Source of the DNA: a virus
Lineage: Duplodnaviria > Heunggongvirae > Uroviricota > Caudoviricetes
Virus record (IMG/VR): IMGVR_UViG_3300029847_000114
Reading direction: 5' to 3' (one strand)
Length of the DNA: 4,023 nucleotides
Each line of letters starts with the position of its first letter. Positions within the stretch are counted from its first letter, which is position 1. The notes beneath the pieces were generated by a model. It did no database searches and had not been told where the DNA came from. It was given only the letters and a program-made list of their open reading frames with translations. Positions 2,024 through 4,023 of the stretch are shown in pieces. The position numbers and the translations under genes are program-made.

Positions 2024-4023
2024 TTACTGCTGTGGTTGTTGTTGAGTTGATTTTTGCAGGATGCTGCTGATGTCCATGCGCTGCGCATGGCCCTGTGCCT
2101 GACTTCTCAGGACAAGCTCTGCATCAGCACGGGCATTGTCTCCTTGCTGTTGCTGGAACTGTCCGAGCAGTTTCAGAGCCTCGCGGATATCAGATTTCTG
2201 CTGGCTATCGGCAGATGCGAGGATTTTCACAACATTTGCCGCTGCAACCTGAGCATCAGTCTGTGCCTGGAATGCTTTAACCTGAATGGCTGCCTGTTCG
2301 TTCTGCGCTTTCTGCAATTCAGCCTGACCAGCAAGCAGCTGACCTTGCGCTGCAACCATAGCCGGATCTGGCTGACTGGCCTGTTGTTGTTTCGCCTGCT
2401 CAACCATTTGCTGTTCTTCTGGCGTTCTCGGCTTGATAACTCCAGACAGAAGCAACTGATTGCGGTTGTATTCTTTAAGGTCGTCCATCCCTTCGCCGTC
2501 CATATTGTCGAGAATCATCGACGATACAAGGTCGTGCTTCGGCGTTCCTGGTGGGATAAGTGCCAGCATGGAAAGTAACGACTTAACCGTTGCGTCACGG
2601 CGAGTAGCGAACGACTGACCGACATCGACAGTCACTTCATAGTTACCCTGCGAAAGGTCGTTAAGTGCGATAACCTGCCCTGTCTGACGGTCAACNNNNN
2701 NNNNNNNNNNNNNNNNNNNNNNNNNNNNNNNNNNNNNNNNNNNNNNNNNNNNNNNNNNNNNNNNNNNNTAGAAAGCCACACGACGCCAGCACGGCGCATG
2801 GATTTAGCCATGTTGTCCATGTAGATATAGGACTGCGTGTCCATCCGGTTAAAGATGCTATCAACGGTATCGGTAGCGACGTTGCTCGGCATGTTCTCAA
2901 GCTGCGACGCGCCTGTAATTTGCTGAATAGCCGTTCCGGTGTACTGCAATAGCCCGGCAAGAGCAGGAGGCATTTGTGTCGGAGGTGTCCAGCCAGCAAC
3001 CTGAGCCTCTGAAATGACCGTTCCGTTTTTGTCCTTCTTGCTGGTCATGGGAAGAACTGCAGGTCTTTTCTTATTCCTCTCTGCCCAGTGATTCATTAAT
3101 GGACCGGGAATGAAATCAACATCCACGATAGGAATGCCATCACCGCCAGCCTGAGTAGCGTTATCTGCAATCATGGAAACCATCAGGTTCTCAAGACGCT
3201 GTGCATCCATCGCTTTTGCTGCGTGGCCTTCGATTCGCTCCTGATTATCAACAAATGAGCGACGCCCATATACCGGGATGAGTGGAATATGTTCTCCCGG
3301 AATACGCTTTGGTTCTTCCAGCCATTCAGCGCCAGACAGAAGACCGCAATAAACTCGGCGTTTCTTCACTGTCCGCTCACCGATCAGTTCGAATGCACCA
3401 TCGGTTAGCTCGTCGACAATATCTTTGATTTGCTCTTCATCATAGATTGCCGTTTCTCCGCTAACAGAGTTACGCCACGCCGTGAGCTTCACCTTCTCTA
3501 TGCGAACTTCGTAGTAGCGACCAACATAGATAGCATCAGGCGTTGACCAGTCATATTGAGTGCCAGTGTCATCACGAGAAAGACTTGCCGCGATGGAATC
3601 AGGGTATTCAGCCTCGAACGCTTTAGGCGTCATGGAGAACATTTCCATAGCCCACATAGCATCAGAGCGGTCATATTGCTTGCTGTCCTGATCGAAGAAG
3701 ACGCATGTCGCTGGGTCGTAAACCGGGAGAAGGCTTATACGGCGTTGCTCGTTACTCGGATCCATTTCATCTTCGTAATCGGCACACATGCGGAAACAAC
3801 CGAATCCGCCCGTTACAGCATCATCAAATGCGTTATCACACGCTTCGCCACCGGATGTTTCCTGATAGTCAGCGCGGAATTTGCCGTTCATTTTTTCGGC
3901 TAACGCTTCCGATGCCTTATCGTCCTTCGGTCTGAATTTAACGCTTATGCGATTCTGTCGATACTCGCCAATGATGCGATCACATTCACGGGCAATCTTA
4001 TTCAGTTCAAAGCGCGGGTAATG
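2024..4023 (-). CDS. Phage portal protein, P22 gp1-like; 5'-partial (N-terminus lies beyond window end); interrupted by N-run 2696-2768
   Basis: Track ORFs 2632..3891 and 2024..2779 are the two halves of one minus-strand gene, split only by the N-run. The frame also stays open from 3891 to the window edge at 4023 (my own translation: ...FELNKIARECDRIIGEYRQNRISVKFRPKDDKASEALAEKMNGKF...). Motifs matching P22 portal as recalled: GEHIPLIPVYG (P22 GEHIPIVPVFG), KKRRVY, DPAMVAAQGQLLAGQAELQKAQN (P22 [23 protein letters not shown]), and C-terminal HAQRMDISSILQ (P22 HKQRMDIANILQ). Stop codon TAA at 2026..2024. Confidence 0.9.
2696..2768. other. Run of 73 N (assembly gap or masked bases) inside the portal gene
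   Basis: Directly visible. The flanking coding sequence is in frames that cannot be joined by exactly 73 nt. Confidence 0.99.

Follow-up and report, generated by a model that had tools for sequence, protein, structure and literature searches.

Portal proteins of the closest described phages

The best solved relative of the portal protein considered here is the gene 3 protein of Shigella phage Sf6 (PDB 7SFS, 7SP4 and 7SPU), which matches residues 7–694 of the intact portal of a relative (E = 8e-248). The Sf6 portal differs from it as another allele, with many substitutions and a length of 708 rather than 732 residues. The portal protein of Salmonella phage P22, gp1 (PDB 3LJ5, 5JJ3 and 5JJ1), is also a member of PF16510 and is collinear over residues 12–731 (E = 1e-116), but is far more divergent than the Sf6 protein. 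In the procapsid form of the P22 portal, the ‘hammer’ loop of the wing (residues 456–505) touches the crown (PMC5290284).

The DNA analysed here (the whole stretch of 4,023 nt, hereafter the window) carries an ordinary, well-known portal gene of the P22/Sf6 type, interrupted by a run of N. Alignments with Sf6 gp3 and P22 gp1 were made via the intact portal protein of a relative. The segment hidden by the N-run aligns, free of gaps, with residues 478–507 of the Sf6 protein (MAREVYGSEREVRIVNEDGSDDIAVLSAQV) and with residues 467–496 of P22 gp1, which are 30 residues with no indel. Judged from these alignments, the hidden segment would most likely encode a part of the hammer loop of the portal wing.

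The nearest named phages are of the Lederbergvirus Sf6/Sf101/CUS-3 type, with phiv205-1 at 97.3% identity, and JEP4, Kapi1, Sf101, Huey and CUS-3 at 94–95% identity to the window. The best BLAST matches reached 98.3% identity among complete Escherichia coli genomes, 98.0% among plasmids and 97.3% among phages, and the same module is carried by roughly 420 of the 5426 complete genomes of E. coli. The nearest kin of the locus are E. coli and Shigella phages of the Sf6/Sf101/CUS-3/phiv205-1 type and not P22, which had served as the reference in the preliminary description of this DNA.

Gene content of the window

All recognisable genes in the window lie on the minus strand. The 5′ part of the portal gene occupies positions 2769–4023 and comprises codons 62–479 and the first base of Met480, the start codon lying beyond the window end; codons are numbered according to the 732-residue portal of two draft E. 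coli genomes, L008 and L011. The 3′ part of the gene, at positions 2024–2695, comprises codons 510–732 (VDRQTGQ...QQPQQ) and the stop codon at 2026–2024. An intact scaffolding protein gene of 297 codons spans positions 1040–1933, and positions 1–1021 hold the initial 340 codons of a coat protein gene of P22 type (PF11651, E = 5e-60), which runs off the window. The readable part of the coat gene is identical to that of L008 and L011.

The genes follow the terminase–portal–scaffold–coat order of P22-like morphogenesis modules, with portal, scaffold and coat inside the window and the terminase located upstream in all near relatives; the E. coli prophages in L008 and L011 have the same order. With its scaffolding gene intact, the morphogenesis module is otherwise undamaged. 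A scaffolding protein identical over all 297 residues is present in 396 blocks of the public collection, and a portal gene of 732 or 733 codons adjoins it in 10 of the 10 places shown. A Pfam search with this protein returned no match at E ≤ 0.001, and it is still labelled as a hypothetical protein in some RefSeq records.

Both flanks of the N-run match the P22_portal profile, PF16510, well above its gathering score of 26.1 bits, by which Pfam membership was judged, in agreement with the earlier assignment of the gene to the P22 family. The N-terminal part covers profile positions 43–439 (E = 2e-111, 373.6 bits) and the C-terminal part positions 468–594 (E = 2e-34, 119.3 bits), so that about 28 positions are missing between them and the flanks are collinear pieces of one protein.

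The N-run and the portal reading frame

The window contains a single N-run, at positions 2696–2768 and assigned to neither strand, in which 73 N were counted, leaving 3950 readable bases; the preliminary description had given the same coordinates and count. Read on the minus strand from position 4023, the portal frame runs through 418 codons with no stop, after which one base remains, the A at 2769, as the start of a further codon. On the other side of the N-run, a codon starts at position 2695 (GTT GAC, encoding VD), and the frame continues from there to the stop codon. Joining the two frames requires a length of 2 mod 3, whereas 73 is 1 mod 3. The leftover base, the point of resumption and the wrong modulus had all been noted before, and re-deriving the frame arithmetic confirmed them. 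In the relatives, the place of the N-run is taken by the last two nucleotides of codon 480 and by codons 481–509 of the portal gene, and comparison with them shows the sequence of the window to be free of errors up to both edges of the N-run.

The hidden segment in near-identical relatives

Of the 3950 readable bases of the window, 3949 are shared with each of two draft E. coli genomes, L008 (GCA_054545515.1) and L011 (GCA_030510745.1): all 1255 nt upstream of the gap and 2694 of the 2695 nt downstream. The lone difference, at window position 2042, sets a minus-strand CAA codon against CAG, both encoding glutamine, and neither flank of the portal has an amino-acid change in its readable part. 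One synonymous difference in 3950 nt gives no sign of relaxed constraint, although this is a weak test, as a very recent inactivation would look alike.

At the position of the gap, both genomes have 89 resolved bases in place of the 73 N of the window, and their portal gene encodes an uninterrupted protein of 732 residues. On the minus strand the 89 nt read TGGCTCGTGAAGTCTATGGCAGCGATACGCCAATGCGCATCGTTAATGAGGACGGCAGCGATGACGTGGCGCTGATGACTGGTGAAGTG, comprising the last two bases of codon 480 and 29 further codons, and encode the peptide (M)AREVYGSDTPMRIVNEDGSDDVALMTGEV.

Length of the segment across wider relatives

The gap-equivalent segment measures 89 nt in 103 of the 103 related loci that were fetched, comprising 12 NCBI genomes, 2 phage or complete-genome records, 1 GTDB genome, 1 metagenome contig and 87 IMG/VR contigs, the last retrieved with a pattern that permits 60–90 nt between the flanks. 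The preliminary description had expected about 30 residues, or about 89 nt, at this point, a figure borne out by these loci and by the indel-free alignment with P22 gp1. Across the 103 loci the segment occurs as 24 DNA alleles that encode an almost invariant peptide, which, together with the fixed length, indicates purifying selection on both length and sequence. The metagenome relative (98%/92%), found with a 62-nt flank, and the GTDB relative, E. coli SCPM-O-B-8794 (96%), found with a 40-mer from a conserved portal stretch immediately beyond the window, each have 89 nt at the gap. The exact 136-nt gap flank had no match in GTDB species genomes or in IMG/VR.

Complete genomes give the same picture. 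Among the matches listed from complete E. coli genomes, 64 of 65 rows (40 of 40 and 24 of 25) span 16 nt more than the query, as do 11 of the 11 full-length phage matches. The remaining row, NZ_CP063483.1, spans 15 nt more; the same record is among the 917-nt matches to the gap region, which span 16 nt more, and its missing base therefore sits outside the gap. Exact-protein look-ups with six possible products of a broken gene (a 223-residue fragment, a 251-residue open reading frame containing X, and the products of four internal starts) found none recorded.

A direct repeat at the edge of the gap

In the relatives, the upstream edge of the gap-equivalent segment has the arrangement GGCTT-TCTATGGC-TCGTGAAG-TCTATGGC-AGCG, an 8-bp direct repeat with a period of 16. 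The readable part of the window ends after GGCTT-TCTA, leaving only the TCTA half of one repeat copy visible, at positions 2769–2772 of the minus strand. Because the repeat has a period of 16, alignment at this edge of the N-run is ambiguous by exactly the 16 nt that separate 73 from 89. With a 16-column gap placed before TCTA, the MAFFT alignment pairs the 73 N one to one with 73 nt of the relatives. The TCTATGGC pair is the only period-16 direct repeat of at least 8 bp in the 2199-nt portal gene, and for a randomly placed gap edge a shift match of at least 4 nt at a distance of 16 would be expected by chance in 0.8% of cases per flank.

The portal gene has four direct repeats of at least 8 bp with a short period (at most 40 nt). 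Two of these lie within the hidden segment or touch its edge (L008 positions 5146–5238, corresponding to window positions 2696–2772), namely TCTATGGC with a period of 16 and GGCAGCGAT with a period of 36; in addition, the 7-mer GTGAAGT recurs 72 nt apart. Such repeats might make this part of the gene prone to deletion by slippage, though none of the relatives shows a deletion.

Origin of the N-run

The count of 73, the two frames, and the length and content of the segment in relatives can be read directly from the sequences; what we infer from them is that 73 is an estimated number and that the 89 nt of the relatives are present in this strain too. On these comparisons the portal gene is very probably intact, and the N-run is very probably a scaffolding gap whose size was estimated and came out 16 nt too short. 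The source would be a P22-like prophage of E. coli type (Lederbergvirus, Sf6/Sf101/CUS-3-like) in a scaffolded draft, in which two contigs were joined and the assembler’s estimate of the distance between them, 73, was entered as N. The true distance would be 89 nt, the estimate having fallen 16 nt short and out of frame by chance. The hidden bases in this strain would most likely be TGGCTCGTGAAGTCTATGGCAGCGATACGCCAATGCGCATCGTTAATGAGGACGGCAGCGATGACGTGGCGCTGATGACTGGTGAAGTG, as in L008 and L011, and the portal would be intact.

An intact gene is favoured by the near-identical intact relatives, the invariant length of the segment, the collinearity of the flanks and the lack of other damage in the 3950 readable bases. 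The number 73 differs from conventional fixed gap lengths such as 10, 50 or 100 N. Odd N counts introduced by scaffolders are typically estimates of distance from paired reads, with errors of tens of bases. The N-run resembles other sized gaps in scaffolded drafts in its unconventional length, in its collinear, error-free flanks and in a count that is near but unequal to the true distance: the flanks are collinear with those of resolved relatives, and 73 N stand against 89 nt in 103 of 103 loci. The preliminary description had offered a choice between a placeholder of arbitrary length and a genuine frameshift that would mark the prophage as defective. The intact near-identical relatives and the invariant length strongly favour the former, and the latter is unlikely.

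Two observations tell against an estimated gap. The 16-nt discrepancy equals the period of the 8-bp direct repeat at the upstream edge of the N-run; if the N-run were purely a gap estimate, such a match would arise by chance about 1% of the time (0.8% per flank). In addition, nothing within the 89 nt accounts for a break in a short-read assembly, the local repeats being of 7–9 bp and too short to break a k-mer assembly. A mosaic or recombination boundary was rejected as the cause of the break, as the density of mismatches with eight relatives has no step at the gap. A single-nucleotide bubble in a de Bruijn graph (89 = 2 × 45 − 1) was likewise rejected, because the one site that commonly varies around the midpoint of the segment is position 53 rather than 45; such a bubble is also disfavoured because flanking unitigs would normally reach up to the polymorphism. 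In all relatives the portal is encoded in a single frame, which speaks against programmed frameshifting.

The coincidence with the repeat period fits an alternative that we regard as improbable, in which the 73 N are masked or uncalled bases of true length and 16 nt have been genuinely deleted between the two TCTATGGC copies by slipped-strand or microhomology-mediated events. GGCTTTCTATGGC would then join directly to AGCGATACG, and the frame would shift after Met480 and reach a stop 18 codons later, after VVWLSMAAIRQCASLMRTAAMTWR (also given as WLSMAAIRQCASLMRTAAMTWR). The resulting protein of 498 residues would be truncated inside the hammer loop, with an incomplete wing and no crown or barrel, so that the prophage could make no virions. 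Deletions between short direct repeats are a well-known class of bacterial mutation. The N-run begins within the first copy of the sole period-16 repeat of this size in the gene, and the MAFFT alignment fits 73 N to 73 nt once its 16-nt gap is placed before TCTA; the low chance, given above, of a shift match at either flank speaks for the deletion as well. Yet only 4 nt of the repeat are visible, and length-true N-runs are a minority in bacterial drafts. The deletion was seen in 0 of the 103 loci, its junction GTCGTGTGGCTTTCTATGGCAGCGATACGCC had 0 matches in IMG/VR compared with 87 intact contigs, and all the listed complete E. coli genomes are of full length across the gap, which together put the base rate of a frameshifting indel in an 89-nt stretch very low, at roughly 1e-4. 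Across hundreds of complete genomes, the portal gene very rarely carries a frameshifting indel. A BLAST search of complete E. coli genomes with a synthetic 67-nt deletion junction gave intact sequence in 12 of the 12 listed rows, matched in two pieces with a span of 83 nt, a result that is uninformative as a count because two half-matches of an intact gene are merged into one place. Because no secondary mutations have accumulated beyond the putative frameshift, any inactivation would also have to be very recent. By our own estimate, the small priors that the deletion requires multiply to a value far below the roughly 1% of the coincidence.

The same 89-nt evidence from L008, L011 and the 103 loci would serve equally well if the gene were intact and the N-run had arisen through some other processing artefact, such as a stretch of low quality, low coverage or contamination converted to N after trimming, or a partly filled gap with a decremented count; flanks that are free of errors up to the N edges fit deliberate masking as well as they fit contig ends. 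Simple masking preserves length, however, and would leave 89 N, so that an additional trimming step is needed, and we consider such an origin very unlikely. Least probable of the explanations considered is that the N-run conceals sequence foreign to the family, either an insertion (an IS element or a homing-endonuclease gene) or a replacement of the segment by divergent sequence. Short-read assemblies do break at IS insertions, and the preliminary description had cautioned that anything inserted at this point would be invisible. That caution holds only if the N count is uninformative; a count as specific as 73 resembles an estimate of a short gap, which speaks against a large insertion and points to a short measured distance. 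A concealed insertion or replacement is further opposed by the invariant length in all 103 relatives, the near-identical L008 and L011 included, and by the mismatch density against eight relatives, which marks no mosaic boundary at the gap.

Implications for annotation

On these sequence comparisons, the apparent incompatibility of the frames most likely has no biological basis. Automatic annotation would label the portal a frameshifted pseudogene, and the prophage defective, from an N count that most likely carries no information about the frame. The 30 missing residues can be imputed with high confidence from the near-identical genomes. Were the 16-nt deletion real, the window would represent a P22-like prophage that had only just been inactivated and in all else matched its active relatives, and one more case of prophage inactivation by microhomology deletion, a known process.

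Observations on related records

E. coli EM03-18-08 carries the module twice, in its chromosome (NZ_CP063483.1, positions 2559586–2563623) and in a separate 39-kb record (NZ_CP063485.1, positions 12900–16938). Over the stretch equivalent to the window, the chromosomal copy is 1 nt shorter (4038 versus 4039 nt). The pair may reflect an excised or replicating phage genome together with an assembly indel.

In the record of phiv205-1 (MN340231.1, positions 464–904 and 5519–6772), two annotations disagree with those of its relatives. The 417-residue product of the gene after the scaffold is labelled ‘terminase small subunit’, whereas relatives have the P22 coat protein (PF11651) there, and the 146-residue product of the gene before the large terminase is labelled ‘HNH homing endonuclease’, where relatives have a small terminase of Sf6 type (PF20901). 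Both labels are probably mistaken.

A 258-nt stretch at window positions 2294–2551, which codes for the C-terminal crown and barrel region of the portal, is 97.7% identical to sequence in the 254-kb record of Aeromonas phage AP1 (MT713136.1). The portal-like stretch occurs at two places in that record and is annotated as a hypothetical protein, which is unexpected in a jumbo phage of Aeromonas; the record could be contaminated or a chimeric assembly, or the stretch could have been transferred recently.
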